Counted from the first letter of the stretch, positions 25,562-64,000 are shown. The stretch is 64,000 bases of DNA from Rhynchopus sp. YZ270_cl-10 (GCA_964035575.1 OZ037839.1:310001-374000); one strand, 5' to 3'. A program made the numbers and translations. Notes: generated by a model not told the origin, from the letters alone.

Positions 25562-25726
25562 GGTGGCAGAGGTGTGGGAGGGGTGGTGTATGCCTGTGGT
25601 GGTGTGTTTGAGAAGGTGGGTGTTCCCTAGCAGTCGGAATATGGTGCGTGGGGGGTGCTCACGTTACAGCTGATGGCTTTGGGGTTTCAATGGGTGTGGG
25701 TGTGGGTTTTGTGGAAAGCAAAATCC

Positions 25727-26139: not shown

Positions 26140-29100
26140 TCAGTCTTCTTTCACTTCCTCCTGCGTGTCGAGAACATCACGCTTGTACCCTCCTGTGTTC
26201 GTCACATGTGTTCCGGATATTCCATGCGAAGACGCAGTGTCCGACGAAGACGACATCGTTTTGAAAGAACTAAAGGCGCTCTGCGGGTCAGACATAAGTC
26301 TGCTCGACGCAGAACTGGACACTGCGTCGTGGTAGGTAGAAGGAGACACGTCGTGAGGATACAGGTGCTCTGGGCGGTGCTGGTGAGCCGCAGGGCCTAA
26401 TTGTCTGCGACCTGGATGTCTAGGGGGCATCTTGCTTAGGGAGGGCGGTGGGTAGTACTCACCCTCAGGCTCTCGTCGTTGCTGCTGTTCCACGGCCGCA
26501 AATCCGTCCCTGCATAATGAGGAAAGCCTCTCACGCAAGGGTTTCTTTAACTCTGCTCTTCTTGCCCTGACTTCGGCATGTCTGCCACTCAGTGTGTTGG
26601 AGCCTGTTGTCATTACATCTGTTCTGGAAACATCAACAGGTTGTGGCTCTCTTTCTGGATGCTGACGTGACTCTGCCATGTGTTCCCATGTCGCACGCAT
26701 TGAGAGAAGTTTGTTGCGCAAGAGTTCCTTTTCTGCTGAATCTGTGCAATCAGTGAATCGCTGAATTAGTTCCTTCTGCACTTCCTCCTGCATGTCTACA
26801 ACTGCACGCAGTGTGTTGCAGCCTCTTGTGTTCATCACATCTGTTCTGGAAACATCAACATCAACAGGTTGCTGCTCTGCTCCTGCATGCTGACGTGACT
26901 CTGCCATGTGTTCCCATGTCGCACGCATTGAGAGAAGTCTGTTGCGCAAGAGTTCCTTTTCTGCTGAATCTGTGCAATCAGTGAATCGCTGAATCAGTTC
27001 GTTCTGCACTTCCTCCTGCATGTCTGCCACATCTCGCAGTGTGTTGGAGCCTCTTGTGTTTCTCACATCTGTTCTGGAAACATGAAGAGGTTGCTGCTCT
27101 GCTCCTGGATGTTGACGTGACTCTGCCATGTGTTCCCATGTCGCACGCATTGAGAGAAGTTTGTTGCGCAAGAGTTCCTTTTCTGCTGAATCTGTGCAAT
27201 CAGTGAATCGCTGAATCAGTTCGTTCTGCACTTCCTCCTGCAGGTTAACAACTTGGCGCAGAGTGTTGGAGCCTCCTGTGTTCATCATATCTGTTCTGGA
27301 AACATGAAGAGGTTGCTGCTCTTCTCCTGCATGCTGACGTGACTCTGCCATGTGTTCCCATGTCGCACGCATTGAGACAAGTCTGTTGCGCAAGAGTTCC
27401 TTTTCTGCTGAATCTGTGCAATCAGTGAATCGCTGAATTAGTTCCTTCTGCACTTCCTCCTGCATGTCTACAACTGCACGCAGTGTGTTGGAGCTTCTTG
27501 TGTTTCTCACATCTGTTCTGGAAACATCAACATCAACAGGTTGCTGCTCTGCTCCTGCATGCTGACGTGACTCTGCCATGTGTTCCCATGTCGCACGCAT
27601 TGAGAGAAATTGGTTGCGCAAGAGTTCCTTCTCTGCTGAATCTGTGCAATCAGTGAATCGCTGAATCAGTTCTTTCTGCACTTCCTCCTGCATGTTGACA
27701 ACTCGACGAAGTGTGTTGCAGCCTCTTGTGTTTCTCACATCTGTTCTGGAAACATCAACATCAACAGGTTGCTGCTCTTCTCCTGCATGTTGACGTGACT
27801 CTGCCATGTGTTCCCATGTCGCACGCATTGAGAGAAGTTTGTTGCGCAAGAGTTCCTTCTCTGCTGAATCTGTGCAATCAGTGAATCGCTGAATCAGTTC
27901 GTTCTGCACTTCCTCCTGCATGCTGACAACTTGACGAAGTGTGACAACTTCAGCAGCAACAAGTGGAAGCTCCGGTGCGGAAAGGGACTCTGCCATGTGT
28001 TCCCAAGCAGCACGAATTGGTTCAAGTTTCTCGCGCAAGCGCTTCTTTGCTGCTGAATCCATTTGACTCAGTTCGCTGAGTGCTGCTGTGTTTGTCACAT
28101 CTGCCTGGATGTCGGCAACGTCGACATCAACGACGCCACCTGCCTGATCCACTTCCTGCTCCACGCCTACCATAAGATAACGCACAGTCTCCGTGCCTCC
28201 CTCTTCCGCAAGAGTAATCAGACATGTCACGTTCTGTATTTTATGATTTTCTCTGTCCCCTGCAGCAGCTTCAAAGTGCTGTGATAGCTCCTCGATATGT
28301 TCTGTGACACGCAGTTCCGCACCAGCTCCCACCAACAGATTCACAATGTCGCGGTTCTCTCCCATGCATTTACAGACAAGAGGTGAAGGTCCTCTGTCGT
28401 CCCATTTCTCGATGCGTGCACCTGAATCAATGAGCTCCTGCACCTTAGCTGCATATGATTTGGGGTAACGCGCTGCTGCATCGAAACGGATATTGCCATT
28501 GCCCTGTATATGCAGCCGTGCACCCGCTTTTAGCAACATCCTCACGATATGGACCTCACCCGCCCGACAAGCCATCATCAGAGGCGAACAGACCAACTCG
28601 CTCTTTGCTTCCACGTCTGCACCTGCATCAATAAGCATCTGCACCACAGCATCATCTTTGCTGGCCACTGCGTGGTGCAACGCAGTCCAGTGCTGAGCAT
28701 CAACGAGGTCCACACCCACCTCTGGCATGCACAGAAGGCTTTTCACAAGCCTCGTGAATCCACAAGAAGACGCAATCATGAGACATGTCCTGCCATCTGG
28801 GTCTCTTGCACCCACATCCACACCTGCTCGAACCAGTACCTTCACAGCATCATTCGCGTCTGACTCGCAACCCGACAGCAGAGGCGAATACTTCTGGACA
28901 TCCTTTTTCTCAATGTCTGCCCCTGCATCAATGAGCACCTGCACCATATCTGCACGATTTCTACCAACTGCCTTGTGCAATGGTGTGTTGCATGTCCGGT
29001 CCCCACTTACCTGATCCACATCCACCTGCGCCAAGACCACAAGATAGCGCACAGTCTCCGTGTGTTCCCAACGCAAAGCAGTGATAAGACATGTGTCGCC

Positions 29101-29616
29101 GATGCGGTCTGTGACACGCAAGTCTGCACCAGCTTGCACCAACATCTTCACAATGTCGAGGTACCCTTTATTGCACGCAAGGATAAGAGGCGTATGTCCT
29201 TGGCTGTTCTTTTTCTGGATGTCTGCCCCTGCATCAATGAGCACCTGCACCACGTCTGCCTGGTTATAACGAACTGCCTCGTACAACGCCATGTTCCAGT
29301 AGTTACCTACCTGATCCACATCCACCTGCCCCAAGCCCACAATATAGCGCACAGTCTCCGTGTGTCCCCCACGCGAGGCAGCGATAAGACATGTGACACG
29401 CAGTTCCGCACCAGCTTGCATCAACACCTTGACAACGTCTAGGCACCCTCTGACGCACGCAAGGATAAGAGGCGTACGTCCTTCAGCGTCCTTTTCCTCG
29501 ATGTCTGCCCCTGCATCAATGAGCACCTGCACCACATCTGCACGTCCTTCCTCCACTGCCTCATGCAACGTTTTGTTGTTGTGGCTGCCTGAGTCTCGCC
29601 CATGTTTGTTTCCCAT
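26140..29616 (-). CDS. Chimeric family gene A: ankyrin array + 6 x 76-aa helical repeats + Pro/His/Ser tail (1158 aa)
   Basis: Ankyrin consensus GRTPLILAC..GCLDVVKVL, LIDAGADIE; six RFTDCTDSAEKELLRN repeats; intact ORF; N-terminal MG. Confidence 0.85.
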   Translation of the reverse strand: MGNKHGRDSGSHNNKTLHEAVEEGRADVVQVLIDAGADIEEKDAEGRTPLILACVRGCLDVVKVLMQAGAELRVTCLIAASRGGHTETVRYIVGLGQVDVDQVGNYWNMALYEAVRYNQADVVQVLIDAGADIQKKNSQGHTPLILACNKGYLDIVKMLVQAGADLRVTDRIGDTCLITALRWEHTETVRYLVVLAQVDVDQVSGDRTCNTPLHKAVGRNRADMVQVLIDAGADIEKKDVQKYSPLLSGCESDANDAVKVLVRAGVDVGARDPDGRTCLMIASSCGFTRLVKSLLCMPEVGVDLVDAQHWTALHHAVASKDDAVVQMLIDAGADVEAKSELVCSPLMMACRAGEVHIVRMLLKAGARLHIQGNGNIRFDAAARYPKSYAAKVQELIDSGARIEKWDDRGPSPLVCKCMGENRDIVNLLVGAGAELRVTEHIEELSQHFEAAAGDRENHKIQNVTCLITLAEEGGTETVRYLMVGVEQEVDQAGGVVDVDVADIQADVTNTAALSELSQMDSAAKKRLREKLEPIRAAWEHMAESLSAPELPLVAAEVVTLRQVVSMQEEVQNELIQRFTDCTDSAEKELLRNKLLSMRATWEHMAESRQHAGEEQQPVDVDVSRTDVRNTRGCNTLRRVVNMQEEVQKELIQRFTDCTDSAEKELLRNQFLSMRATWEHMAESRQHAGAEQQPVDVDVSRTDVRNTRSSNTLRAVVDMQEEVQKELIQRFTDCTDSAEKELLRNRLVSMRATWEHMAESRQHAGEEQQPLHVSRTDMMNTGGSNTLRQVVNLQEEVQNELIQRFTDCTDSAEKELLRNKLLSMRATWEHMAESRQHPGAEQQPLHVSRTDVRNTRGSNTLRDVADMQEEVQNELIQRFTDCTDSAEKELLRNRLLSMRATWEHMAESRQHAGAEQQPVDVDVSRTDVMNTRGCNTLRAVVDMQEEVQKELIQRFTDCTDSAEKELLRNKLLSMRATWEHMAESRQHPEREPQPVDVSRTDVMTTGSNTLSGRHAEVRARRAELKKPLRERLSSLCRDGFAAVEQQQRREPEGEYYPPPSLSKMPPRHPGRRQLGPAAHQHRPEHLYPHDVSPSTYHDAVSSSASSRLMSDPQSAFSSFKTMSSSSDTASSHGISGTHVTNTGGYKRDVLDTQEEVKED
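26630..27940 (-). repeat. Tandem array of the ~228-nt coding repeat (6 units)
   Basis: Recurring ctgaatctgtgcaatcagtgaatcgctgaat core with 222-228-nt period. Confidence 0.95.
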
Positions 29617-29708
29617 GTGTGTCGTTGCTGTGTCTTATGTTTTGTGTCTGTGAGTGGTGGAGTGACGTTACTCTTTGTGAAGAGGTGTATGGACAGAGGA
29701 GAGGATAC

Positions 29709-34763: not shown

Positions 34764-35398
34764 CTGCCCCCTCCAATGTGCCCGGAGGAGAGGTTCAGCC
34801 AAAGGTTCTCGCGCTGGCCGGACTCCTCGCAGACCCAGCTGGAGGGGTCGCTGGAGATCTGTGGTGGGTTTTCGACCTGAGGGAGGGTTGCGGCGAATTT
34901 GCTCTCGGTTGTGGCGTCGACGTCTTCCCAGGCTGTGACGTCTTCTTTGAAAGCGACGCCGTCGCTAGAGATGACAGCTGTGCATGCGTTTTGGACGAGA
35001 GTCGGCAGGTCATCGGAGAGCTCGTGGAAGGTGATGCCCGTAGGTTCCACGACCGCAAGGCGGTGTGTCTTCACAATGTCGTATGCAGGCCCGCCAGAGA
35101 AGCCTCCGTCCACGCCGATGGCCATCTTCGTCGGTGCCTCCTCTGCCTGCGGGCGCTCCACCTTGGCCCAGCTTTCGTGCAAAAAAAGTGTTTCCTGCGT
35201 CTTAGAGGCGTAGGCACCGACGCGGGCACGGCCAAAGCCGTACCACGTGCTCAGGGAGACGAAGAGCCCGCCCTCGCAGAAAGGGTTCTCGAAGGTGAGC
35301 ATGCATTCGTCCTTGAAGACCTTGTCGTACTGTGTTGGTGTCTTGACGGTGCGCATCCCCTTGCGGATCACGGACAGTGCATCTTCAGAGATGGGCAT
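34764..35398 (-). pseudogene. Truncated near-identical 5' copy of USP5 (first ~212 codons)
   Basis: Matches 24927-25561 almost exactly, plus the upstream flank; breaks after SGHIGGG inside the ZnF-UBP region. Confidence 0.9.
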
Positions 35399-35830
35399 GG
35401 TGGCAGAGGAGGGGGAGGGGTGGTGTATGCCTGTGGTGGTGTGTTTGCGAAGGTGTGGTGTTCCCTAGCAGGAATATGGTGCGTGGGGGGGGGGGGGAGC
35501 TTACGTCACAGCTGATGGCCTCGAGGTTTCAATGGGTGTGGGTGTGTATTTGGTGGAATGCTCGAGGGTTTCGCTATTAAAACTGTTTTCTGACGGTACA
35601 CGAAAACGTCGTCAAGGAGATACGTTAGCATCAAACCACACCTGAATACGGTGGAAGAATGAAGTCACAAAGCACAAAAAGGTGCAGTGATGAGCATTAT
35701 TGTTGTGTTCTTAGTCACCCAGCCCACCCCTCAGCTCCGCCTCAGGAGAAGTCGTAGTTGATGGTGCCGTCCTGGTTCTCCTCACTCGTCCTTGGCGCCC
35801 CTCTGCAGGTGGCGGGAACGGCGACGGCTC

Positions 35831-38800
35831 CTACTCTTGTGACTGCAGCGGCGATTCTGGCAGCGGCACCAACAACCGCAACAGATCTGTGTTCATCACA
35901 TCTGTTCTGGAAACATCGGCATCAACAGATTGCTGTTCTGCTTCTGGAAGCTGACGTGACTCTGCCATGTGTTCCCATGTCGCACGCATTGAGAGAAGTG
36001 TGTTGCGCAAGAGTTCCTTTTCTGCTGAATCTGTGCAATCAGTGAATCGCTCAATCAGTTCTTTCTGCACTGCCTCCTGCATGTTGACAACTCCACGCAG
36101 TGTGTTGCAGCCTCTTGTGTTCGTCACATCTGTTCTGGAAACATCGGCATCAACAGGTTGCTGCTCTGCTTCTGGATGTTGACGTGACTCTGCCATGTGT
36201 TCCCATGTCGCACGTATTGAGTGAAGTGTGTTGCGCAAGAGTTCCTTTTCTGCCGAATCTGTGCAATCAGTGAATCGCTGAATCAGTTCATTCTGCACTG
36301 CCTCCTGCATGCTGACAACTCCACGCAGTGTGTTGGAGCCTCTTGTGTTCGTCACATCTGTTCTGGAAACATCAGCATCAACAGGTTGTGGTTCTGCTTC
36401 TGGATGTTGACGTGACTCTGCCATGTGTTCCCATGTCGCACGCATTGAGAGAAGTGTGTTGCGCAAGAGTTCCTTTTCTGCTGAATCTGTGCAATCAGTG
36501 AATCGCTGAATCAGTTCTTTCTGCACTTCCTCCTGCATGCTGACAACCCCACGCAGTGTGTTGGAGCCTCCTGTGTTCGTCACATCTGTTCTGGAAACAT
36601 CAGCATCAACAGGTTGTGGTTCTGCTCCTGGATGTTGACGTGACTCTGCCCATGTCGCACGCATTGAGAGAAGTGTGTTGCGCAAGACTTCCTTTTCTGC
36701 CGAATCTGTGCAATCTGCGCGTTTGTGGGGGTAGTCAAGCTCAGCCGTGTCGTCGCTCAAGGAGATTGGCAGGCTTTCTGCAGCCACGTCACGCTCAATG
36801 TTATCCATTGCATCCTGGAAATAACCCTCCAAAGTCAGTTCTAACCTCTCAAGACAATTACGCCATGCTCTTAATGAATCGTAGAGTCTCTTTAATTTGA
36901 AAAGCTTGCTTTGATCTTCAGGAGACATAGCATGAGTGGGGTCCTTCGCCGCAGCAGGCTGCAAAGCAGCAGGCACCCCTGCAGCAGCAAGCTTACCTAA
37001 GGCAATCGGCGGAGTCGATTCTGTCACTGTTTGTGGACTCCGAACTGGTATCGTGCAAAGTGCAGGGGAAGGGGGTGTCGAAGAGAGTGTGGAAGAAACC
37101 TGTGGGTAATGGCCAAATCGTTGTTTTGCAGTGAAAGCTCCACGGTAGTTGTTGTGTTGGGTTCCGCGGAAGGTTTTTCGGGTTGTTCTGTCTGGGGTAT
37201 GCAGGCATGTATCGGGTGTGGCAGTGCGTGCGGCATCGGTCTTGAGAATACAACAGGGCCGCAAACTGGCGTGGAATTTATAAAAATCTGGCAAATAGTA
37301 GTCGTCTTCAACTGGAACCGTTCCTGCCCCAGGGAGGCTTGAGACGATGGATCGACCGCTCTCTGCCTCAGATTTGCCGAAGTATCGCTCCAGAGTACGC
37401 AGCGCAGTGGTGCACCATTGAGTGTAATCAGCAGGTTCTGCGTCGTGTTTGAGAGGGATAATGTTTACTACGGAAAGGTATTCTGATACTTTGTCAGATT
37501 CCACCTTAGGTTGTGTAAGGCTTTGCAGTGCCAGCACAAAAGGTGTGAGAGGGTTTCGTGCTGCAACCTCCGGATCGTCCGAACAAAAGCATTTCAAAGA
37601 ATTTCCTTCTTTTCCGAAGGGTTGGAGGAGGGTTTGGATGTCTGCTTTGATTTCGTGTGGTTTGGGACGTTTGTCAGCTTTGAAACGCATGCATCTCGCG
37701 AGAAGAACCGAAAACCCATCACTCAACGCCAATGGCACTGCAAACGAGGCAATACATATATTGCTGTCCACATCAGAGCAGACCCCATCCTGCATGAAAG
37801 AAGGCCAGGGGCCTTTTTGGTTTGGGGTGGCAAGAACCAGCATGGTGAGGGCAAGCGACCACACATCAGCGGCACCTGTCACAGACCCAGCACCTTCGTC
37901 ATCGTCAAGACCTATTGGAGGGCTGAGTGAGTCGAGACCGTCCAATCCTGACGCAGTGTCCAACGAAGCGTTTGAAGTGAGCTCTGGTGCGCCAAACCGG
38001 TGAGTGCTCAAACCGCCCCCGCTGACCCGAAACTCTTGTGACGAACCCGACATAGTTCTGCTGGTGCTGCCCAAAGGCACAAACGCAGACGGCGCGCAAA
38101 ACCCATCATCATCTCCGGAAACGTCGCTAGCAATCCCACGCTTTGAAGTCCCAAAGTCGGCAAACTTAATATACCCTTCGCGGGAGACAAGAATATTCGA
38201 AGGTTTGATGCCATTATGCAGAATACAGTAAGACCCGAGACGTTGCAAAGCGCAGGCAAGCTGTTTGAAAATGTACAACAAAATCGCCTCGGGGAGAACG
38301 CCGTGGGTGTGCGAAGAGTCTCTGTTTTTTTTATTTTTTTGAGAAATTCACAAAAATTAACACAACATACGTTATAGGCGATTCCTTTGGACTGCATCCA
38401 CATTGCCTTCGCATATTTGGGGGGTGTGTATGAACGTATCGCGCACCTTTACTCTGCTGGACGTACCCTGGAGAGAGGCTCGTTGCTACCGCGGTGATGG
38501 CTAAAGCGGCAACATAGAGAGCGGAACAACGATCGTTTTTCATGCCTTCCTCTGCCGTGCTTGCGGCCATTGAATCCGAGCTGCGTCCGAGGAATGCATC
38601 CCGAGTTGGAAACTTCGCAACAATCTTATTCAACACCCTCTGATCAATCAACGAAGCCAGCCGTCTCAACTGATCTAGGTTGAAGTCCATATGCTCCATG
38701 ACAAAATCGACACTCCCGGCACTCCGTTTCGCTGGAGAGCTTGGGGCTGATGGGGAACCGGGGGCTCCACTATCCGCAGAGAAAGTACCAGGGGGTGACG

Positions 38801-41800
38801 CGAAGACCCCGCTCCGCCCGGTACGTGCCGGATTGAGTCTGGCGCAGTAGAGTTTGACGATGTGGTGGATGCTGTTCTGGTAGAGCTGTCTATGGAACTC
38901 TCCTTGGATGGCGCTGGCGATGAGTTGTGTCTTTTCTTCAGATGGGAGTCGCACGGAGACTGGTGCGCAGGTTTTTTCGCATCGATCTAGATTGACTTCC
39001 TTGCGAACAAAGAAGACCGGAACAGTGGGAAGTGTTTGAAAATGGCTTGGTCCCTGAAATTTGTAGACCACCCCTTGCGTGCCTCTACCGATACAGTCTT
39101 CGCGGTCGCGCGCCTTATCCATAGCGTTGAAGAGACATTGGGAGCAGCCGCGTTCCGTGCAATTCTCTCGGTGTACTGCTTCCTTCGTCCGTTTGGTTGT
39201 GTTTGGCTGGACTGTGGTCATGCCTTCTTCGGTGATGACGAAGGTGCCATTTTCTTGGTCGCGAACCTCAATCTGCTCTGGTGTGACGTGGACACACCCA
39301 GAGCTCCACGCGGTTGTGTCCAGCGTAGGCATTTGTGGCAGAGCAGGAGGCTTCGGCGCATTCCTCCTTGTCCTATCACCTGGATGCTGACGTGACTCTG
39401 CCATGTGTTCCCATGTCGCACGCATTGAGAGAAGTGTGTTGCGCAAGAGTTCCTTTTCTGCTGAATCTGTGCAATCAGTGAATCGCTGAATCAGTTCTTT
39501 CTGCACTTCCTCCTGCATGTCTACAACTTCACGCAGTGTGTTGGAGCCTCCTGTGTTCGTCACATCTGTTCTGGAAACATCGGCATCAACAGGTTGCTCT
39601 GCTTCTGGATGTTGACGTGACTCTGCCATGTGTTCCCATGTCGCACGTATTGAGTGAAGTGTGTTGCGCAAGAGTTCCTTTTCTGCTGAATCTGTGCAAT
39701 CAGTGAATCGCTGAATCAGTTCTTTCTGCACTGCCTCCTGCATGCTGACAACTTCACGCAGTGTGTTGGATCCTCCTGTGTTCGTCACATCTGTTCTGGA
39801 AACATCAGCATCAACAGGTTGTGGTTCTGCTTCTGGAAGCTGACGTGACTCTGCCATGTGTTCCCATGTCGCACGCATTGAGAGAAGTGTGTTGCGCAAG
39901 AGTTCCTTTTCTGCTGAATCTGTGCAATCAGTGAATCGCTGAATCAATTCTTTCTGCACTTCCTCCTGCATGCTGACAACTCCACACAGTGTGTTGGATC
40001 CTCCTGTGTTCGTCATATCTGTTCTGGAAACATCGGCAACAACAGGTTGTGGTTCTGCTTCTGGAAGCTGACGTGACATGCGTTCCCTTTCATAGGCAGT
40101 ACTGTGCAGACCTTCATGCTCGCGTGCACGCGACCCCTTGCTTAACCGAACGCCCCCAACTTCACAGCTGCCGTCAGCACGATCCGCATACTCCATCACC
40201 TTCTCGTCAAAGACCACACGATTACTGTTGAAGCCCGCCACTGTCTTGCCTGCCAGCCCTTCAAGGTAACGACCATAATAATACGTCTGGCCTGCTTCCT
40301 CATCTTTTGTGATCGAGTCCCGTGCAGAGGCCTCCATCCAGTGCAAATGCCTCAGGGGACAGTGCATAGTCAGATGGGTGTCTCCGCAAGAACGACATAA
40401 CTGAAAAAGAGAGTTAGCCATTCCTTCCGAAGACGCAGCATCCGACGAAGACGACATCGCTTTGGACGAACTAAAGGCGCTCCGCGGGGAAGGTATAGGA
40501 GGTCTGCTACTCGACGCAGCACTGGACATTGCGTCGTGGTAGTAAGGAGACACGTAGTGAGGATACAGGTGGTGATGTTGGTGGTGATGATGATGATGGT
40601 GGTGGTGAACCGCATGGCCTGGGTGTATGTGACCTGGGTGAATCGGGGGCAAGTACCCCGGCATCATGTGCGTGTAGTGACTAGCAGGGACGGGCAGCGG
40701 TATGAACTGCTCACCCTGAGGCTCTGCCCCTGTGTTTTTCACATCTGTCCCGACGACGGAATCAACAGGTTGATGCTGACGTGACTCTGCCACCATATGC
40801 TGTATGTGGCAGAGATCCTCACAAAAATATACCGAAGACGCAGCATCCGACGAAGACGACATCGCTTTGGACGAACTAAAGGCGCTCCGCGGGGAAGGTA
40901 TAGGAGGTCTGCTACTCGACGCAGCACTGGACATTGCGTCGTGGTAGTAAGGAGACACGTAGTGAGGATACAGGTGGTGATGTTGGTGATGATGATGATG
41001 ATGGTGGTGGTGAACCGCATGGCCTTGGTGGGAGGGAGTAACACGGACTCTTGCGTGCTTTTGCGGCAGCGGCACGAAATCATCCTGTAGGTAGTGGTGG
41101 TAGTGAGATCGACCAAAAAAAGAACAAAAGAAGAGAAGTTGAAAGTGCAAACGCCCACCGTACATCAGTGGATGCAGGCAATGGAAAATAATCTTGTTTC
41201 AGGAAAAGACTCAAGACCAAGTAAAATAGGGGGAACGGGGTTTGAGTTTCTTTAACAAAATATACCGAGGACGACGAAGGCGTAGAAGACGACGGAGACC
41301 ACGTGTCCCGTGCCACAGGAAGTGTGTTCAGCTCTTTCTGCACTTCCTCCTGCATGTCTGCCACTCCACGTAGTGTGTTGGAGCCTCTTGTGTTTGTCAC
41401 ATCTGTCCTGCGAACATCAGCATGAACAGGTTGTGGCTCTGCTCCTGGATGCTGACGTGACTGCGCCTTTCTGCGCTTGCGTTTCTCACGCCGTGAGAGA
41501 TGTTTGTACAGCGAGCCCTGTATGTATTGATTGGTGAGATGCACCAGCAGAAATACATGTAGTTTTTAATGAGATACAATGAGTGGTGCTACCGGCCGCG
41601 TACATATTACGTCGCGTATTTATTACGGGGGGTACTTATTACGTCGCGTACTAATTACGTCGCTTTTTGGGGGCCCGCGGGCCCCCAAAAAGCGACGTAA
41701 TTAGTACACACCGTAAGGTGGAAAAAAAAAATGGGGGTAATCATGTTGGAACACAGCTGGTGTGGGCACATCACTGGGGGGATACCGCCAAACCCACACA

Positions 41801-44800
41801 ATCCCGAAGGCCATCGCAGATCGTGTGAACGAGGAGGAGAACAAACCCAACACGCGGCGCGTGTACACGGCACAGGGTAAGGTGGAAGAAATCGGTGAGA
41901 ACTCTGCCACAGTGCGTCTAGTGCCTCTGTATGCGCAAGAGGAGTGGGAAGTGCCAATGGAGTTCCTCAAATCCGCAATTTGAGCCATTCATTCATATTT
42001 CAGCAAATGTACCGTTTTTTCCGGGTGTCGGTGGGCTGTAATTGGGTGTAATTGGGAAAAAATACCGTTTTTGCCGGTTTTTGCACTTTTTTTGCACGTT
42101 TGACTTGCTCTTCGGTCCCCAAACCCCCAAATTTTCCCACTTATGTGCTGTTTCCCTACAAATCAATATAAAATCGAAAACGGCGATGAAAAAGATGCCT
42201 TGGTGAGTGGTCACAGATGCTGCACCTGCACGGTTCCAATGCGAGAATGGAGGACACACATGTACCGTTTCCCCCATTTGACCTGCAAGAAATGGAGTAA
42301 ACCCGCTGCTTTTAAACACCGGCATTTGCATTTTCGGAATCTGTCCGGCCAGTGGTGGGGTCAATTTGACGAAATGGACAAGTTCTCGTTGTTGGTCAGT
42401 TACTTTTGACCACCACAGATTACATGTGTTTTTACCGGTTTTCTATGTGCTGATGTGTGCTGGGAAGCATGCCACCAGTGTTACAATTTTACAAGGTAAA
42501 AATGACCTATGTACGTACGTATGTGAGGAAGAAGGCTGAGTGGGGATGTAGTGCCACAAAATATATGGAAAGCATGCAGTCCCCTGTCCGGTTACCAAAA
42601 TCCGCCCTTTTCGGGGGTGCCACACCCGAAAAGCGGGTGTCGTCACACCCTCTAGTTGAGTATCCCGTTTGACCCGCTCAGAGGCTGGACCTCACCGTGT
42701 GAGCAAGCAAAACAGGTCACCCCCTGTTAAGCCTCAAAAACACCTGAGTTGTACTAGTGGTGTGACTGGGTATAATTGGGTATAATTGGGCTGTAATTGA
42801 CCCAACGTGGGTCCAGATGGGCTGTGTTGGGTCCGGTTGGGTAGGTGAAAAAACGGTACAGCAAACATTCAAAAAACGTTTGCATGCTGCAATCTCTGTC
42901 CAATGTAACCTTGTAAAGGGCCGAGGGCCAACACACAACACCAAGAGAAATCCCAGAAACCCTTCCCACTCACCTTGTACGTAGATTTTGTTTTTCTTCA
43001 AAAGATTAATTACGTCGCACACTTATTACGTCGCGTACTAATTAAGTCGGCATTTGCCCTAACCGACTTAATTAGTACGCGACGTAATATGTACGCGGCC
43101 GGTATGCAGGGAAGGGGGCGAGTATATTTAAAAAAAACAGAACCAAAGAAGTGGCAAGGCGCAAACCTCTCACTATACATTTTGTTTCACTAAAATACCG
43201 CCTACAGAGGGAAAAGGGGAGCGGAGGTTTCCTTAAAAAATATATACCAAATACGCAATATCCGCAGACGAAAACTTGCTTTTGGACCAACCAAAGAGGG
43301 AAGGATTATCAGGAGGATAATACAATGGCGGGTGGTGGTGGTGATGATGGTGGTGGTGGTAAGCCGCATGGCCTGGGTGTCCCGGGGGAAAGTACCCCGG
43401 CACCGTCCCCGGGTAGCTCGCACCACTGGTGCTGGACCCATCTATGTAGCCCGGGGTGGCAAAGTCGTCTGGCGGCATGGCAGTCGCAGTCGAGGCTGTT
43501 GATACACCGACGCCAGTGGAGGCAGGCCAGCAGGGCTGTGTCTGCACTGCACAGGAGGCCTGCGTTGCGTCGTCGGTCTGTGTCGCTGCAGACTCCTTCC
43601 TGACACGAAGGTGCTCACCCTGCGACGGCAGTCCGTCCGTCTGGCACGACTTCGACATAGACCCCGTCGCACCACTAGCAGGCCCCTCAAAGGAAAATCT
43701 TTGTACCAACAGCTGCGTACCATCTTCGAGCACAGCCTTCGCAACACCCTCCATTTTCATTCTCCTTTGCAACTCTGTCTGCAACACGACGTAGCACCTG
43801 GGGATGCTTGCAATGAAGTTCTCGTTCTGTGATGTGGGTAAGTTTGGGTGTGCAACACTTCACCCATGCCCACCAATCCAACCAGCAGAAAAATACAACA
43901 TGTATTGGTCTGTGCACAAGAAAGCCAGACGCACTTCATGAGGTCTCCTTTACCGACAAAAACCATACCTGAGACAACGGCCTGCAGCAACGCTTGAGCA
44001 CACCCCACATCTCTTGGATCTGTTCTGTGCTGTGTGCGGTGTTTTCCACATTAGGCGTTGCTGCGACCAGGAGACAGCAGAGCATCACTACTGAGGGGGG
44101 GAACTCACGGAAGGAGGAGACATTGTAGCGGACAAAGTCGAAGGCTGTGGGAACAAACTCCCTGTCGTCCACTTGACGTCCGAACATCTCCGCAGAGCAG
44201 GGTACAAGCTCGAGGAAGCGCCGCACCTCTTTGCGCACGCCGAAGTCTTGTGCATAAATCTCTTCTTTCATCACTTCCTCTAAAGCACGCAACGCAGGAT
44301 GTGACCCGCTCATGTCCTTCGTCTTGTCCTCGCTTGCGCTGTGCAACAGCGCTGCCAACCCCACCCCTTTCTTCACAGAAATGTCTGTGTTGTAGACATC
44401 CTCCTGAACACCCTCAGTCAGAACGATTGCAGCAAGATCAAAGAGGCGGACGCCTTGTCCCCCTCGGAGGTGTTCTAAAAGCAACCCCCATGCAGTCAGC
44501 TGATCCCACATTGTGACAACGTGGGTGCTGAAGTCGAGCAGCTTCAGAAGCTCGAGCTCCTGATGGCGAAGAAGGTCTGCAGAGATGGAAAAGTGCTTGC
44601 TGATGGCTGAGAGAACGGGGAACTGAGTACAGTTGAGCTTCACTGCTATAAAAGCCGCGGTGACAGACCAGGTGTGAAAGTCCTGCTCCTGCATGTTGGG
44701 TTGTGAGTGGAGCACGACGTCAAGGTAGTGTTGTGCGATGTGCACAATGTACTCTTGATTTACAAGGCGGCCTAGGGAATGCGTCACCCCTGTTACGTGA

Positions 44801-45165
44801 AAAACAACCCGATCACGCCTCACAGCGTACTTCTCATTCGAGGCATGCACCTGAAGCGACTCACCTGAAGGCCGTCTCCCCCACGACAAAGAGTTCGCGC
44901 AGTCCTGCAGCACCTCGCAGGTGTAATCAAAAGACGGCCGTTCCGCCACCTCCAACGTCCGCCACCATTTGCTCGCAAGCGCAACTGTTGCAGTTCCCAA
45001 CGTCGTACACTCGCCCTCCGGCCCATAGCAGCCTCGGTCAATAAATTTGGCTTGGTGTTGTGGCTCTGTCGCGACAACATCAGCATCAACAGGTTGTTGC
45101 TCTGCTCCCGGGTGATCACCTGACTCTGGGCTAGGCGGGGAAGGTAAAGAGTGCCCCGGCACCAT
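35831..45165 (-). CDS. Predicted five-exon mosaic gene B (~2380 aa): cyclin box + His-rich blocks + zinc knuckle + 76-aa repeats + MAP2K-like pseudokinase + 76-aa repeats
   Basis: Exons 43969-45165, 43248-43826, 41266-41517, 38467-41084 and 35831-38321 join in frame through GT..AG introns. Cyclin-like IAQHYLD...AAFIAVKL...ELELLKLLDF; kinase IGRGTQGVVYK, MEHMD, LPEAIL, HNGIKPSN, DFG, APE, ADVWSL. Single-transcript status is not proven. Confidence 0.6.
41592..43102. mobile_element. Non-autonomous DNA transposon with 27-bp TIRs and TA target duplication (Tc1/mariner-type signature)
   Basis: TA|ccggccgcgtacatattacgtcgcgta ... tacgcgacgtaatatgtacgcggccgg|TA; subterminal attacgtcgc repeats; lies within a predicted intron. 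Confidence 0.85.
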
Positions 45166-45586
45166 CCCCGGGTGGCTCGCACCACTAGCTGGGGCGGGCG
45201 ACAGCGGTGTGTCGTGCTCACAGAAAAGCAGAGAGTTTCAAAACGAAAAAATTTAATTCACAGCAAACATGTGTGAGGGAGAAGAAAAGAAAGTGAACAA
45301 AAACGAAAAAACAATGTTTTTCTGAAATGTGATGTTGTTGGGGTAGGGAGAATAAAACAGTTCCAAGAAAAGCTCCTGCGTCGGTTTTCTTTTGGTTACA
45401 AAAAAAACGTTGCGAAAAAAAAAATCCTTTCAAGTCTTTTTGCGTGTTGGAGGAGAAGAAAACAGTTTCCGATAAAGGCTCCTGTGTCGGATTTCTCTTT
45501 CACATCACAAGTCCGCCCTCAAGGATATACGTTGGCATCAAACCACACCTGCATACGGTGCAAAGAATGAAGTCACAAAGCACAAA

Positions 45587-45887: not shown

Positions 45888-46740
45888 CTAGACCAGCACA
45901 TCATAAGGTTCTTCTTGGTTTTGAATGTCTTCAAGAATGCGTTCTTTGTCGATTTCGGAAATGCTAGCGTGGCGAACGGCGTGAAATAAAACCCCCAAGC
46001 CGCATTGCAAGCATGAGGTACGTAGTGCCTGCATTGAGGCCCTCTCCCCAGGATCCTCAGCCAACAACCCCAACAGCAGCTCCTGAAACAACGGCGTTCT
46101 CGACGCAATCTTTGCCACCAGCTGCGTCACCACCGAGGGCTTCTCCAGAACACCCCGCGCCACCTCTTGAAGGGTCTGCCCCGAAAAGGGCCGCGACAAT
46201 TCACTCATTTCATAGTAATTCACTCCTGACCAAATATCCGCCTTTCTCTTCTACACAAAGTTGTTTGGCCACAAAGAACAAGACATGATTCATCTGAAGC
46301 ATCGTTGATCCCCTCGATGGGGGTGGCGTCCATGACGGAGGTCCAGACCTCGGGAGACCAATAGCGTGGTGTACCGCGGACAACTTCGTCGCTGATGGGG
46401 TGGAACGTTCCTCTGATTTCTTCTGTGGAGTCGGTGTAAGTTGATGCGTCTTCGTTTGGTGCCATGAATGCATCGGATGGATTTTTAATATCGACACATC
46501 TGTTCTGGAAACATCAACATCAACAGGTTGCTGCTCTGCTCCTGGATGCTGACGTGACTCTGCCATGTGTTCCCATGTCGCACGCATTGAGAGAAGTGTG
46601 TTGCGCAAGAGTTCCTTCTCTGCTGAATCTGTGCAATCAGTGAATCGCTGAATCAGTTCTTTCTGCACTTCCTCCTGCATGTTGACAACTCCACACAGTG
46701 TGTTGGAACCTCTTGTGTTCATCACATCTGTTCTGGAAAC
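45888..46740 (-). pseudogene. One 76-aa repeat fused out of frame to a frameshifted NEK-like kinase C-lobe
   Basis: VRGTPRYWSPEVW, KADIWS, YYEM..LSRPFSGQTLQEV and DPGER spread over two frames; no N-lobe; followed by the family 3' flank. Confidence 0.65.
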
Positions 46741-46872
46741 AAAGCTTATAAGATGACCCTAAACCTCTCGTGCTTAGTCACCTTACCAAAAAAATATCGG
46801 GTTGGGATAACACCACCCATTTACTTTACTTCCCCTATTTTTAGTTTTTGGATTATTATTGTTTTCCATCTC

Positions 46873-49800
46873 TCAAATCAAGAAGGGGTCCCCTCGGAGG
46901 AGCTGTTCCGACGTCTTTCTTAGATTGGGATCTCTGATAAGCACTTTGGCAACAAAGTTTGCGGCTTCATCGTTGAAATCAACGCCTTTCGGTGGCTGGG
47001 GACAGTCACCTTCTACTTGGCATAGCCAACGCATGAAGGTGTGCGGGCCTTGCGGCACTTCGTCTGCATACCCGAAGGGGAGGAACCCGAGGAGCATTTG
47101 AACCACTGTGTGGCCCAGCGCCCACATGTCACTTGCCTTGCATGCTTCGCCACGAGAAGCTTCGGGAGACATAAAGAGAGGGGTGCCTTCAGGCTTGTTT
47201 GAGGTGATGCTGCAGAGACGAACGGAGGTGCCAAAATCTGCCAGCTTGCATTGACCGTCGGTGTGGAGAAGCACGTTGGCAGGCCTGAGATCTCTGTGCA
47301 CAATATTGTTTGAGTGGAGGTAGTGCAGACCACGCAGGATGTCCTTGGTGTAGCGCTTTGTGGTTGTGGCAGGAATTTTTCCAAACTGGTCGAGCAGACC
47401 GCAGAGCGATCCACCACTGACATACTCCATGGTGATGATAACGTGCTTGCCATGCACCCCGCAGGAGCTGAAGGACACGATGCTCTCATCCTTGTACTGC
47501 GTCAGCAGACGGACCTCATTGATTGCACCTTCAATCGACTCTTGGGCAGGGTTCTTCCCCCCGAGGCGCGAGAATCGCCCACCCTGCTTCGTTTGCGGCG
47601 GGACTGGAATGCACTTCAACGCACACAACGAACCATCTTCGGACATCCCAAGCCACACTTCACCGAACGCACCTTTACCTATTTGCTTTGTGGAGCGCTT
47701 CCAATGGGCGCCCTGCGCATCAGTGAAGGAACGGACCGGGCCGTCGTCATCGGAGGTGGAGGAATCTGAGTCGGAGGGATCCGAATTCAAGAAGGTGGGT
47801 GTAGATGCGTCGGCGATGGCCTTCTGGAGCTCCTCCCCGGTGAAGATCGGGGATCTGGTGGTAGAAGGCATGGGGGATGTTTCTGCTGAGGAGGGGAGAC
47901 GTTTTCTGCGCCGTGCCGAGAGGGGCACCTTCTCGGGCGAGAAGGAAGACGTCTCGGCGGTGAGGAAGGTCGGCTCTGAGGAAGGTGGGAAGGAAGGCTC
48001 ATGCTCGAGGCCGAACTGCATGCGGGTGGGCTCCTGCGACCACTCCTCCCAGCCAATCAGGCGACGGCTGTAGGGTTGCGGCACCACAGATGGGTTGCGT
48101 TGCACCTCCTGCACAAAGGTGCAGAACCGTTCTAGCTGACAGTTCTCCAGGTTTGACTCAAAAGAGGAGGTCGAGTTGTACTCCTCATTGTTCCCCGTGC
48201 TGCCAATAGGGCCGTCGCTGTCTTTCCGATTGTCCACAGGAAGCCTCAAACACATCGGGTCTGTGCCCGCGTTGAGTGGAGAGTTCGGCTTGCGTGGCTG
48301 CTTCTTCATCATCTCCTGGAACTTCTCGATGCTGGAGGTGTAGTTGCCTTCGATGAAGTCGTGGAAGGCTTCGCGCCACACAACCACGTTGGAGGTGTCG
48401 CCTTCGCGGAGAAGCTGTGGTGTGGGTGGAAGGGGTTTGATTGGATACGACTGCGTGTGGTTCTTATAAAAGGTTGGCAAGATGAGATCTCATGGAAAAA
48501 GGGTGTATTTGTGTGAAAAAAAAATAGGTAAACAGGAATAGGGCGGTATCCTCTCGTGGCGGTGTTCTATATATGCGGGGTACGTACCTCGTAAACCATC
48601 TTGGGCCCTTCAGTTTCGTCGAAGATGACAACGTCGATGGGGCGCGTGCGTTGCTGGTCGGTGACCATCTGTGGGGAGAGAAGGGAGGAGGTGTGAAGTG
48701 GGGTGAGGCCAACATAGTTGTACAAAGGCAGCTCCGACGGGGTTTTTTCGATTATCTTTGTATCTTCAACAAACAAAACAAAAACAAAACCTCACGCTTA
48801 GTCACCATTACAAAACCATATCCGGTATGGTACATACATCCTGCACAGCTTCGGAGATGATGATAGGCGTCTGGAGGACGCGGGAGAGCTCGTTGAGGCG
48901 TCTGCAGTCGTCGAGGACGGAGCCGAGCACGAAGGGCGACTTGTGCTCGTCGTTGCCGATGTTGCCGCAGTAGAGGTTCCCCGAGGCAATGCTGACGGAC
49001 CACCCGACACGGTCCTTCGGGTCCTCAACAGCCTCCATGGCCTTGCGGATCTCGAGTGCAGCCCTGCACGCATACCACCCATGCCGTGCGCACGCATGAT
49101 GAGTGTTCCACGACGCAATCAGCCCATCCGCCCGCAGCTGGAACACATTGCCTGACTCCTGCTGGATGATGTCCAGCACAACCGAGACCAGACTCGACGC
49201 CAAAGCATATGTGTCATGTGTGTTGTTGTCTGCCAGCTCCATGATGCCAAACTCCACCGACAGCAGCGTGCCCTTGCGCTTCACCATTGCATCCCTCGGG
49301 CCCATCTTGCTTGACGGCTGTGAGTCGATCTTCGTCGCAGTCTCCTGCATATTGCGCATGGACGACGTCTTGAGCGCCTCGAGCGCGTCTCTGCATGAGG
49401 GGCGGCGTCCTCTGAACCCTACCAGGCTCTGCCCGCGTGAGAGTGGCTCGTTCCTGCAGGAGAGGTCACTCTTCTGCGAGACGAGGCGGCGGGAGGCATG
49501 GCGCGAGAAGCCGTTGTGGGGCTCCTCGTTGTTGTCTGAGGCTGCGAGCGACATGGCAAGCAGGTCTTCACGGTCGCTCCGCAGCGACTCTGACGCGTTT
49601 TTGAAGGACGCCTTGGGCAACGCAAGCAACGCATCTCTGCACGAATCCACGGCCGCAAATCCGTCCCTGCATAATGAGGAAAGCCTCTCACGCAAGGGTG
49701 CCTTTAACTCTGCTCTTCTTGCCCTGACTTCTGCATGTCTGCCGCTCAGTGTGTTGGAGCTTCTTCTGGTCATCACAGCTGTTCTGGAAACATCAACAGG

Positions 49801-52752
49801 TTGTGGTTCTGCTTCTGGATGCTGACGTGACTCTGCCATGTGTTCCCATGTCGCACGCATTGAGAGAAGTGTGTTGCGCAAGAGTTCCTTTTCTGCTGAA
49901 TCTGTGCAATCAGTGAATCGCTGAATCAGTTCTTTCTGCACTTCCTCCTGCATGTCTGCCACTTCACGCAGTGTGTTGGAGACTCCTGTATTTGTCACAC
50001 CTGATCTGGAAACATCAGCATCAACAGGTTGCTGCTCTGCTTCTGGATGCTGACGTGACTCTGCCATGTGTTCCCATGTCGCACGCATTGAGAGAAGTGT
50101 GTTGCACAAGAGTTCCTTTTCTGCTGAATCTGTGCAATCAGTGAATCGCTGAATCAGTTCTTTCTGCACTTCCTCCTGCATGTCTGCTACTTGACGCAGT
50201 GTGTTGCAGCCTCTTGTGTTTGTCACACCTGTTCTGGAAACATCAGAATCAACAGGTTGTGGTTCTGCTTCTGCATGTTGACGTGACTCTGCCATGTGTT
50301 CCCATGTCGCACGCATTGAGAGAAGTGTGTTGCGCAAGAGTTCCTTTTCTGCCGAATCTGTGCAATCAGTGAATCGCTGAATCAGTTCTTTCTGCACTTC
50401 CTCCTGCATGTCTGCTACTTGACGCAGTGTGTTGGAGCCTCCTGTGTTTGTCACACCTGTTCTGGAAACATCAGCATCAACAGGTTGCTGCTCTGCTTCT
50501 GGATGCTGACGTGACTCTGCCATGTGTTCCCATGTCGCACGCATTGAGAGAAGTCTGTTGCGCAAGAGTTCTTGTTCCGCTGAATCTGTGCAATCAGTGA
50601 ATCGCTGAATCAGTTCTTTCTGCACTTCCTCCTGCATGTTGACAACTTGACGCAGTGTGTTGGAGCCTGCTCTGTTTGTAACATCTGTTCTGGAAACATC
50701 GGCATCAACAGGTTGTGGTTCTGCTTCTGCATGTTGACGTGACTCTGCCATGTGTTCCCATGTCGCACGCATTGAGAGAAGTTTGTTACGCAAGAGTTCC
50801 TTTTCTGCCGAATCTGTGCAATCAGTGAATCGCTGAATCAGTTCGTTCTGCACTGCCTCCTGCATGCTGACAACTTGACGAAGTGTGAGTGGAAGCTCCG
50901 GTGCGGAAAGCGATGTCGCCATGTGTTCCCAAGCAGCACGAATTGGTTCAAGTTTCTCGCGCAAGCACTTCTTTTCTGCTGAATCCGTTTCGCTGAGTGC
51001 TGCTGGCACAGCGTCCTCTAGTTCCGTGGAGTCTTCGTCCTCACTGCTGTCGTCCTCTTCATCACTCTGCATGACTGCTTTCACCCCACGCGCCAATGCT
51101 GTAGCTGCAGTTGCCACCTCTTTCACTACCTCCTGCTTTTCCCCCTTCTTCGCAGCCTTCTGCGCCTGCAACACCTGACTCTGGTTTGGTGTTGCCGGTT
51201 GCGACCCTAAAGCCTCTGTGTTTGTCACATCTGCCTGGATGTCGGCAACGTCGGCATCAACGACGACACCTGCCTGATCCACTTCCTGCTCCACGCCTAC
51301 CATAAGATAACGCACAGTCTCCGTGCCTCCCTCTTCCGCAGCAGTAATCAGACATGTCACCTTCTGTATTTTATGTTCTTTTCTGTCCCCTGCAGTAGCT
51401 TCAAAGTGCTGTGATAGCTCCTCGATATGTTCTGTGACACGCAGTTCCGCACCAGCTTCCACCAACAGCTTCACAATGTCGCGGTTCTCTCCCATGCATT
51501 TACAGACAAGAGGCGAAGGTCCTCCGTCGTCCCATTTCTCGATGCGTGCACCTGAATCAATGAGCTCCTGCACCTCAGCTGCATATGATTTGGGGTAACG
51601 CGCTGCTGCATCGAAACGGATATTGCCATTGCCCTGTATATGCAGCCGTACACCCGCTTCTAGCAACATCCTCACGATATGGACCTCACCCGCCCGACAA
51701 GCCATCATCAGAGGCGAACAGACCAACTCGCTCTTTGCTTCCACGTCTGCACCTGCATCAATGAGCACTTGCACCACAGCTGCACGTCGGTTGGCCACTG
51801 CGTGGTGCAACGCAGTCCAGTGCTGAGCATCAACGAGGTCCACACCCACCTCTCCCATGCACAGAAGGCTTTTCACAAGCGTCGCGAAGCCACGAGCAGA
51901 CACAATCATGAGACATGTCTTGCCATCTCGGTCTCTTGCACCCACATCTGCACCTGCTCGAACCAGTACCTTCACAACATCAGGCACGCTTGACTCGCAA
52001 CCAGACAGCAGAGGCGAGCACTGAAAGGGATCCTTTTTCTCGATGTCTGCCCCTGCATCAATGAGCACCTGCATCACATCTGCATGGTTGTGACGCACTG
52101 CCTCGAGCAACGCAGTGTTGTAGTCCCCACCTACCTGATCCACGTCTACTCGCCCCAAGCCCACAAGATAGCGCACAGTCTCCGTGTGTCCCGCAGTCGA
52201 AGCAGCGACAAGACATGTGCACCCGGAGTAGTCTGTGACACGCAGTTCCGCACCAGCTTGCACCAACACCTTCACAGCGTCGAGGCACCCTCTCATGCAC
52301 GCAAGGAGAAGAGACGAACATCCTATGGCGTCCTTTTTCTCGATGTCTGCCCCAGCATCAATGAGCACCTGCATCACATCTACATGGTTGTAACGTACTG
52401 CCTTGTGCAACGCTGTGTAGGCGTCCTGAGTCCTACTTACCTCATCCATATCCACCCCCAAGCCCACAAGATAGCGCACCGTCTCCGTTTGTGCCTCACG
52501 CGAAGCCGCTATAAGACATGTGTCGCCGTAGTGGTCTGTGACGTGCAGTTCCGCACCAGCTTGTAACAACACCTTCACAATGCCGAGGCACCCTCTCACG
52601 CACGCAAAGAGAAGAGGCGTATAGCCTTCAAAGTCCCTTTCCTCGATGTCTTCGCCTGCATCAATGAACACCTGCAACACATCTTCCAGTACTTCCGCCA
52701 CAGCCCCGTGCAACGTAGTGTTGCTGTGGTTGCCTGTATATTGCCCAGACAT
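46873..52752 (-). CDS. Chimeric family gene C: ankyrin array + 5 repeats + class III cyclase-like domain + STE11/MAP3K kinase; exons 48838-52752, 48588-48668, 46873-48414
   Basis: Cyclase-like SIASGNLYCGNIG...FVLGSVLDDCRRL; phase-0 GT..AG introns at 48669-48837 and 48415-48587; intact kinase motifs IGKGAFGEVW, ALK, MEYVSGGSL, HRDLRPAN, DFG, GTPLFMSPE. Confidence 0.8.
49780..50885 (-). repeat. Tandem array of the ~228-nt coding repeat (5 units)
   Basis: Same core as at 26630-27940. Confidence 0.95.
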
Positions 52753-53742
52753 TACTCGTGTGTCGTTACTGTGTCTTATGTTGTGTCTGTCAGTGGTGGA
52801 GTGACGTTACTCTTTGTGAAGAGGTGTGTGGACAGAGGAGAGGATAAGTGCAGGAGGAGAATACAAGCAATTGCTAAGGGGGAAACCGTGGTGTGCTGTA
52901 AGGGTGGAGGTCACCACACACGAGCATAGAAACGTCCCCAAACTGACGCTCAAAGTCCGCTGCCAGCTCTCTCATCATACTGAAATAGGCACATTCACTT
53001 TGAGCACAACAGCAGAAGGAAAGCAAACCCAGACTGCGTAGGTGGCGAAGAGCCGAACATTGCAGTGCCGTGATGTGGGATGCAGTGTTGTGGGGACCTA
53101 AAAGGAATGTGGATGCAGTGTAAAGCGTTCATAGCGATCTGTCCTGACACGTTGTTGTCTCCTTTTGCGTTGTTATGGTGACGTTATTCGTTTTGTTTTC
53201 TTGTTTTGTTTTCCCTCCCAAATCCATTGTACCAAGCTTCCTCAGGCACGGCCTCGAGGGTCTCGCTACTCAAACTGTGTACACGGATACGTCCTCAAGG
53301 AGATACGTTGTCATCAAACCACACCTGCATACGGTACGAAGAATGAAGCCACAAGGCACAAAAAGGTGCAGTGATGAGCATTATTGTTGTGTTCTTAGTC
53401 ACCCAGCCCACCCCTCAGCTCAGCCTCAGGAGAAGTCGTAGTTGATGGTGCCGTCCTGGTTCTCCTCACTCGGACGTCCTTGGCGCCCCTCTGCAGGTGG
53501 CGGGAACGGCGGTGATTCTTCGCCTGCAACACTCTTGTGGCTGGAGCGGCGATTCATCTTCAGGCGTGTGCCCTCGCTGCTGGGATGGTGCTCCGACAGC
53601 GTTCCCTCTGCTGCATCTGTGCACTCAGTAAATAGCTGAATCAGTTCGTTCTACACCACCTCCTTCATGTTTACAACTAGGCCCTTTACATACGCTCTGG
53701 TACTGGCACTCCGCTCAATTGACTTGCGCCTGGCACGTGTCC

Positions 53743-59022: not shown

Positions 59023-59834
59023 GTGTGTCGTTGCTGTGTCTTATGTTGCGTGTCTGTCAGTGGTGGAGTGACGTTACTCTTTGTGAAGAGGTGTGTGGAC
59101 AGGGGAGGGGATAAGTGCAGGAAGAGAATACTGCTAGGGGGGAAACCGTGGTGTGCTGTAAGGGTGGAGGTCACCACACACGAGCGTAGAAACGCCTGCA
59201 AACTGGCGATCAAGTCCGCTGTCAGCTCTCTAATCAGACTGAAATATAATGACAATTATTGATGCGAGAGGCACATTCACTTCGAAGCACAAGAACCCTG
59301 CAGCCAACAGCAAGGAAGGTGTGAAAATGAAACCTAATGGCTTGCCCGTACCTTGGTGTGAATAGGGGTGGTCCATAAAAGGATCCAGCTGGGGTCCTCA
59401 ACAAAACAAGTGGGAAGGAGAGGAAGATAGTAAACATGGGGTGGGGGAATCGTTAGGAATGTACACTGTGTTGCCCGGAGGCGTTTGGGATTTTATACTT
59501 TACTTTACTTTAAAAAAAAACTGTGTGAACACCCGAGGGTGGTCACCTTATAGGATTACTGTTATGCACTGTCGGTGATCTTGCAGTCAACTGTCAACGC
59601 GAAAGTGCTTTGGGTATTTACAAAACAAACTGCACAGAAAATATCCTCACTCGGAAATTCTCCGCAATTCTCCGCTGCATGGAACACAACTTTTTGCGGC
59701 ATATGACGGCACAGCACCACCCAGGATGCTACACATATTTGTCTAGCCCTGTGCGAAGAGTGATCCATTCCCACAATAGCGTGAGGTTGTCCTTGGTGTT
59801 GATGGAAGAGCTGTGGCGAACCCCCTCCCCCGCA

Positions 59835-63884: not shown

Positions 63885-64000
63885 TTAAGTTAGATGTGAA
63901 ATGTCAATGATCTCGACACTCTCACCTCCGTACATCACCACATCACCACAGCTGCTGATTGCAAGACCGTAAGTGCGATTACGAAAGTCACGATGCAAGA
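63885..64000 (-). CDS. 3' end of a second UBL-WD40 gene copy (partial)
   Basis: 63725-64000 is nearly identical to 10940-11214, including the stop codon and 3' UTR. Confidence 0.8.
   Translation of the reverse strand, partial: LHRDFRNRTYGLAISSCGDVVMYGGESVEIIDISHLT

Follow-up and report, generated by a model that had tools for sequence, protein, structure and literature searches.

The window analysed here, a stretch of 64,000 nucleotides from Rhynchopus sp. YZ270_cl-10 (OZ037839.1:310001-374000), carries its long ORFs on the minus strand. Between 35831 and 45165, five exons are predicted to be spliced into one mosaic gene, in which a cyclin box, His-rich blocks, a zinc knuckle and a MAP2K-like kinase domain are combined with two arrays of a 228-nt coding repeat. 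The features of this gene, from its 5' end to its 3' end, are as follows.

43969-45165, minus strand: exon 1, with its ATG in a piece resembling the His/Ser module, then a 53-nt repeat fragment (45076-45128), then the cyclin part
44527-44754, minus strand: Cyclin_N match (aa 138-213), Pfam 23.1 bits with a cut-off of 23
43827-43968, minus strand: predicted intron 1, 142 nt, phase 0, G/GTATG..ACAG
43248-43826, minus strand: exon 2, a low-complexity linker and the first poly-His/Ser module
41518-43247, minus strand: predicted intron 2 (1730 nt, phase 0), in which an inserted element adds to about 215 nt of intron sequence
41590-43104, no strand assigned: MITE-like high-copy element with terminal inverted repeats (arms 41590-41634 and 43060-43104), GCA on both sides (a TA duplication also fits)
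41266-41517, minus strand: exon 3, a basic stretch, a 180-nt repeat fragment (41328-41507) and a Ser-rich end
41085-41265, minus strand: predicted intron 3, 181 nt, phase 0, homologous to intron 2
38371-41084, minus strand: exon 4 with its corrected end, carrying two His/Ser modules, the knuckle, a repeat array and the N-terminal half of the kinase
40832-41030 and 40427-40625 (span 40427-41030), minus strand: two 199-nt copies of the His/Ser module, 99% alike and 83% like the ankyrin-gene tail at 26219-26367
40356-40397, minus strand: eIF3g-like zinc knuckle, C-x2-C-x3-H-x4-C, with weak Pfam and PDB matches
39380-40077, minus strand: repeat array, 3.1 units of 228 nt, the unit being common with the ankyrin genes
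36716-39379, minus strand: near-complete copy of a MAP2K-like kinase, from an N-terminal basic/proline stretch to YPHKRA
38322-38370, minus strand: intron 4 as corrected, 49 nt, phase 2, GTATGT..ACAG, skipped in run X4
35831-38321, minus strand: exon 5, the C-lobe and tail of the kinase, the second repeat array and the stop
35888-36715, minus strand: repeat array, 3.7 units of 228 nt, in place of the native C-terminal 63 aa of the kinase
35561-35857, minus strand: last codons and 3' trailer, 86% like the trailer behind an ankyrin gene (53253-53555)

Reading frame and splicing

A preliminary description had proposed four GT..AG introns that all preserve the frame, giving a protein of about 2380 aa. 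Removing these introns leaves 7137 nt on the minus strand, coding for 2378 aa and a stop with no internal stops, and all four do start with GT and end with AG. It turned out, however, that the donor chosen for intron 4 (38322-38466) is wrong: the real intron covers 38322-38370, as run X4 has a joint from 38321 to 38371 and none at the earlier donor. The corrected model comprises 7233 nt and 2410 aa, also with no internal stops. The recovered 96 nt (38371-38466) code for HTHPPNMRRQCGC, whose two Cys (a CxC motif) are invariant in all eight aligned sequences (the window copy and seven relatives). Frame-keeping alone is weak evidence at this locus, because 2-5 GTA donors and 1-3 ACAG acceptors are available per gap and both intron 4 donors are in frame, and the wrong donor chosen by frame-keeping alone is a lesson for annotation.

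The joint in run X4 comes from an own-type contig that skips exactly 38322-38370 (49 nt, ends CT..AC) at a depth of 20.6, the three own-copy contigs listed for this run having depths of 19.3, 20.4 and 35.6. A single contig carries this joint, which has 28 letters on the short side and is marked 'between: not known'. A sister-type contig is joined at the same point with a depth of 36.9, and run X1 contains neither the own-type nor the sister-type joint of intron 4; runs X6 and X7 gave no match, which has no bearing on splicing. Run X4, like the other runs listed as containing this sequence, is not recorded as RNA, its RNA nature being deduced from the joints; the joined form is best read as cDNA, because the genomic ORF of the sister kinase (P0006, see below) reads into that intron.

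For introns 1-3, no skipping joints appeared among the 15 of 22 listed for runs X1, X2, X3 and X5, which behave as DNA and cover introns and exons alike. The donor of intron 1 recurs, read through, in P0002 and P0003 (see below), and it fits the published diplonemid donor (G)/GTATG (PMC12621601). Introns 2 and 3 are homologous once the 1515-nt element is removed, with both ends kept: they score 33 (5') and 30 (3') compared with 12-19 for other local introns, values that 0 of 2000 and 2 of 2000 shuffles reached, respectively. An Introner-like origin of intron 3, considered for its high depth, was rejected, since the similarity to intron 2 extends into the exon flank. The intron 2/3 donor (TCG/GTATATTT) is found a third time within exon 4, at 40831 (minus strand), where it is read through in frame, and is a possible alternative splice site.

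In run X1, the element at 41590-43104 has about 35-105 times the depth of unique exon contigs, and it has internally deleted relatives. A piece nested in it (42268-42465) reaches about 3800 times the exon depth in the same run, and a high-copy non-coding piece just upstream of the gene (45238-45435) about 760 times.

Contigs break at the arrays, therefore the kinase RNA has no link to the upstream exons, and we infer a single cyclin-to-kinase mRNA across introns 1-3. The locus might instead give more than one mRNA, with the cyclin/His part and the repeat-kinase part kept apart by trans-splicing at an 'intron' acceptor. Essentially all mRNAs of Diplonema papillatum gain a spliced leader from polycistronic precursors (PMC10161547), RNA support is here limited to intron 4, and exon 4, which has its own Met codons, was called as a separate 821-aa ORF (P0014). 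We judge this reading quite improbable nevertheless, considering that a GTAT donor lies a little ahead of the stop of each upstream ORF and is in phase with the following ACAG, that introns 2 and 3 duplicate one intron, both ends of which are preserved, and that nearby host introns (169 and 173 nt) resemble these introns in size and ends.

Modules of the gene and their relatives

As to the MAP2K-like domain named in the preliminary description, Pfam finds a kinase domain in the gene (Pkinase, E 4.9e-12), and its possible closeness to MAP2K comes from the matches of its relatives. In a PDB search, P0021 matched MKK6 best (E 2.7e-12) with SPAK/OSR1 close (E 1.5e-11), and MKK6 and MKK4 were the best matches of a family member from D. 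japonicum. The closest named relatives belong to Diplonema japonicum, D. papillatum, Lacrimia, Flectonema and Sulcionema, which makes the organism, a marine protist, a diplonemid, and in the alignment their N-termini resemble the basic/proline N-terminus of the window kinase. The diplonemid MAP2K-like family (D. papillatum KAJ9456765.1, 'Protein kinase 3', etc.) has the N-terminal Cys motifs, the subdomains, the CxC insert and the C-terminal helices in common with the window copy. The seven family relatives are stand-alone proteins of 703-1056 aa with HxD intact, and contain no cyclin, no such His modules and no 76-aa repeat.

The window copy keeps the Gly loop, beta-3 Lys, alpha-C Glu, DFG and APE, and its catalytic Asp is changed to Gly (HNG versus HND in the sister; codon 38210-38212), a one-base difference from P0006. 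This Asp is present in eight of eight relatives and Gly occurs only in the window copy. Kinases without the beta-3 Lys, the HRD Asp or the DFG Asp are regarded as pseudokinases, and the domain would, as judged from its residues, belong to this class. It would represent a dated case of a pseudokinase born by one codon change, set against a catalytically intact sister.

The sister P0006, located on a 748-kb contig, is 86% identical to the window copy over 566 aa in one frame and has the same intron. It is from the same organism, because its indels and letters occur in runs X1 and X4. After YPHKRA, P0006 continues for 63 aa with a native tail, and the window copy switches to the 76-aa repeat there. 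In the ENA relatives P0024 and P0025 the kinase is one uninterrupted ORF, therefore intron 4 was likely copied along with the DNA. A search for short relatives of exon 4 (4912 candidates) gave two repeat pieces only, with no match to the first exon of the sister kinase and no donor of the knuckle or the His module.

The cyclin box was also recovered, with Cyclin_N just at the Pfam cut-off (23.1 versus 23 bits) and at 25.7 bits in its sister P0002. This sister lies on an 864-kb contig, has 75% identity over 43942-44943 and ends in the same intron-1 donor. As for a second cyclin fold, Pfam gave no Cyclin_C match; the cyclin has no PDB sequence match, and its structure model is all-helical with a pLDDT of 41. 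Residues of the cyclin box play a role in CDK binding, and His tracts play a role in nuclear condensates. The three poly-His blocks are present as described: the His/Ser module occurs three times in the gene and once more where the ankyrin gene 26140-29634 ends, and another piece of this module holds the start codon. P0003, on the same contig outside the window and read from its protein only, combines the 3' end of a cyclin with intron 1, a His block and pieces of exon 2 whose frames change; it is a predicted mosaic of the same parts.

The knuckle likened to that of eIF3g, CRSCGDTHLTMHCP, is indeed there, but the likeness is limited to 14 residues (Pfam E 0.0085, below cut-off; PDB E 0.084). 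The gene is not to be counted as an eIF3g member, as the knuckle alone matches, below cut-off, and no exon has an RRM match. An Atlas search with the knuckle region gave zinc-knuckle leads only, all sub-0.9.

To evaluate selection, we compared the window kinase with P0006. Among their 227 differences, 40 were listed and analysed, with both lineages mixed: 28 of the 40 lie at third codon positions (p 2e-6) and 23 are synonymous, compared with 28% expected (p 8e-5). Twelve of the 59 amino-acid differences are polarisable (5 derived here, 7 in the sister) and 47 are not. All eight indels of exon 5 relative to P0006 keep the frame and shorten the window copy, one of them by 10 aa in the activation segment. 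Besides, all five repeat pieces of the model share the frame of the ankyrin genes, a test which presumes the splices of the model and in which the pieces may have been copied together. Frame is not automatic at this locus: 45888-46758 spans two frames, 34764-35561 is truncated, and the exon-2 frames of P0003 change. At the level of its sequence the kinase shows purifying selection, a signal that mixes the lineages and could predate the fusion.

A transcribed chimera with no function, whose kinase duplicate evolved intact, was recently fused and is now passively transcribed and starting to decay, would agree with the loss of an Asp present in all eight relatives, with eight of eight indels shortening the window copy and with the broken chimeras at the locus; moreover, polycistronic transcription requires no selection. 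We give little credence to such decay, however, as 7233 nt are free of stops and frameshifts, although about 4 stops would be expected neutrally in the kinase part (our own estimate: ~5% per lineage x 2622 nt x 3.0%). Derived changes are not in excess here (5 versus 7) and the repeat pieces are 5 of 5 in frame.

The 228-nt repeat and the surrounding locus

The repeat arrays reported earlier are two in this gene and consist of a 228-nt (76-aa) unit with about 31-32 copies in the window, mostly behind three ankyrin ORFs. Beyond the preliminary description, we found that the adjoining ankyrin genes, themselves chimeric, have the repeat in common with the mosaic, as well as its 3' trailer and one His/Ser block; the trailer is 86% like the one behind the ankyrin gene 53743-59040. 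Of 15 protein matches, 14 carry the repeat: four in the window, four elsewhere on the contig and six on six other contigs. Among its partners are ankyrins, domains without annotation (P0005, P0018) and one that resembles a P-loop (P0015, below cut-off). The same seed is found at many duplicated loci with different partners, as for a core-duplicon-like seed. P0002 and the repeat-bearing contigs (P0006 aside) would come from the same assembly. An Atlas search with the repeat gave no usable match, and the Pfam matches on it (Glyco_hydro_2_C, DUF5770, TetR_C_19 and others) were rejected, for they sum tandem copies and mostly no single stretch passes.

The gene at 46873-52752 (minus strand, 1845 aa) contains ankyrin and 76-aa repeats, a cyclase-like part and an STE-type kinase (Pkinase E 7.9e-48, HRD intact), with two predicted introns in frame (48669-48837 and 48415-48587) of 169 and 173 nt, similar to those of the mosaic in size and ends. 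The label 'cyclase-like' is our own reading, and this part has no Pfam match. Spliced in this way, the gene would be a second chimera. The ankyrin gene at 53743-59040 (minus strand) contains 13.5 repeats and ends in a Cys-rich tail; behind its stop lies a decayed repeat piece (53598-53678), an arrangement as if cargo had been inserted into the array. At 45888-46758 (minus strand) there is likely a broken chimera: behind a repeat remnant come part of a kinase C-lobe in a different frame (Pkinase E 0.0011) and then the shared trailer.

Directly behind the trailer of the mosaic lies the duplicated (96%), truncated 5' part of a USP5/UBP14-like gene (34764-35561, minus strand), and the full gene (22871-25663, minus strand) lies behind the trailer of an ankyrin gene at 25.7-26.1 kb. 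The window also includes an 11-nt G-rich satellite, AGGGGGGAGAG, at 15308-17022 (55 + 19 + 4 copies, strong strand skew), and a 291-nt copy at 63710-64000 that is 97% identical to 10928-11214 and comes from the 3' end of the WD40 gene 11099-12619.

Origin, possible function and known systems

Taken together, the mosaic is probably a single chimeric gene of young age; its five exons are predicted to be cis-spliced into a product of 2410 aa, and it was likely built at the DNA level, by copying host pieces into and around an unstable 228-nt coding repeat of the local ankyrin family. The capture at the DNA level suggested before is supported in its main argument, since the cargo keeps introns and the sisters share them (intron 4 with P0006, the intron-1 donor with P0002), but one splice site was wrong and the ankyrin source of the repeat had been missed. 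The donor search for each exon and the intron comparison proposed at the same time led to P0006 for the kinase, to P0002 for the cyclin, and to local ankyrin genes for the repeat, the His module and the trailer, but not to a parent of the knuckle. Retroposition, the processed-mRNA route, was excluded because introns are kept.

In the proposed process, breaks or stalled forks in the tandem array would be repaired by template switching to distant loci, by which a 2.7-kb kinase copy could end up between repeat units and the 3' trailer could arrive along with the repeat array. Repair at the coding array would be followed by local duplication, polycistronic transcription would supply expression, and selection would then keep the in-frame products. 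Diplonemid genes being co-transcribed and trans-spliced, cargo on the same strand would need no promoter of its own to be transcribed. Template-switch repair would be the simplest reading of the mechanism, although only 1-2 nt of microhomology is visible at the right junction of the kinase. The locus appears to make such fusions repeatedly. In diplonemids, genes form unidirectional clusters with spliced-leader processing, and introns are mostly GT-AG and can contain transposons (PMC10161547), features that agree with the window.

Instead of repair at the repeat, a transposon (Pack-MULE, CACTA or Helitron type) might have carried the cargo. Such elements hold host fragments with introns, from which splicing yields chimeric RNAs (PMC1947982), D. 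papillatum has MULE- and Helitron-like ORFs (PMC10161547), and short high-copy elements lie just upstream of the gene (45238-45435) and within intron 2. However, among the 25 of 37 pairs listed there are no inverted repeats around the gene, as would be expected for a Pack-MULE or CACTA element, a hairpin with a CTRR end is absent from the gene strand in the three stretches scanned, and the sole TIR element sits inside an intron and holds no exon, which makes a transposon origin very improbable. An assembly artefact joining unrelated loci through the repeat is hardly credible, for although the stretches compared with contigs end at both kinase-repeat junctions, contigs with 0 differences bridge 44530-45268 (gene start, repeat piece and cyclin), 43083-43830 (exon 2 and intron 2), 41019-41362 (exon 3, intron 3 and exon 4) and 40090-40456 (module and knuckle), a chance join would not keep the frame at both ends, and the window kinase is a separate locus because it is about 10% diverged from its only close sister.

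Starting from the young chimera built by copying at the repeat, two further ideas can be put forward. It is possible, though doubtful, that the repeat and the 3' trailer act as a core-duplicon-like seed that repeatedly captures intron-bearing genes in frame, with polycistronic expression at once, so that the locus would be a fusion factory and the cyclin-pseudokinase a selected link between cell cycle and MAPK. It is rather unlikely, as a second idea, that the protein works as a non-catalytic scaffold or decoy, joining a cyclin box that may bind CDK, together with His-rich blocks, to a MAP2K-like domain that is dead. Parents, shared introns, seed repeat, intact products and broken by-products are seemingly all in one protist genome, and therefore it is testable whether promoter-free polycistronic expression eases the birth of fusion genes.

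Chimeric genes formed by DNA-level duplication are well known in animals and plants. A literature search that covered few subscription papers found no report of such chimeric genes in diplonemids. Tandem copies of gene ends that adjoin genes, and that are able to mislead annotation, make the repeat-bounded genes of D. papillatum a similar case (PMC10161547). Pack-MULEs, Helitrons and the soybean CACTA element Tgm-Express1 likewise capture unrelated intron-bearing host fragments as DNA, giving spliced chimeric RNA (PMC1947982), whereas here the scans found no element ends flanking the cargo, which includes a near-complete kinase, and there is one long frame instead of random splice forms. In the primate core-duplicon fusions (NBPF/Olduvai, NPIP and TBC1D3; for instance NOTCH2NL-NBPF and NPIP-PKD1P), a repeat-bearing seed gene that has duplicated recurrently is joined to unrelated gene pieces and forms one end of the fusion ORF (PMC13639854). 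In contrast, the seed here is the 228-nt coding repeat with the 3' trailer of a protist ankyrin family, the pieces range from 50 nt to 3 kb, cargo lies between repeat units, and transcription is likely polycistronic. The likeness to core duplicons and to fragment-carrying transposons is one of process only, with no sequence relationship. In conclusion, the process is of a familiar type, and the seed sequence and the lineage in which it acts are new.
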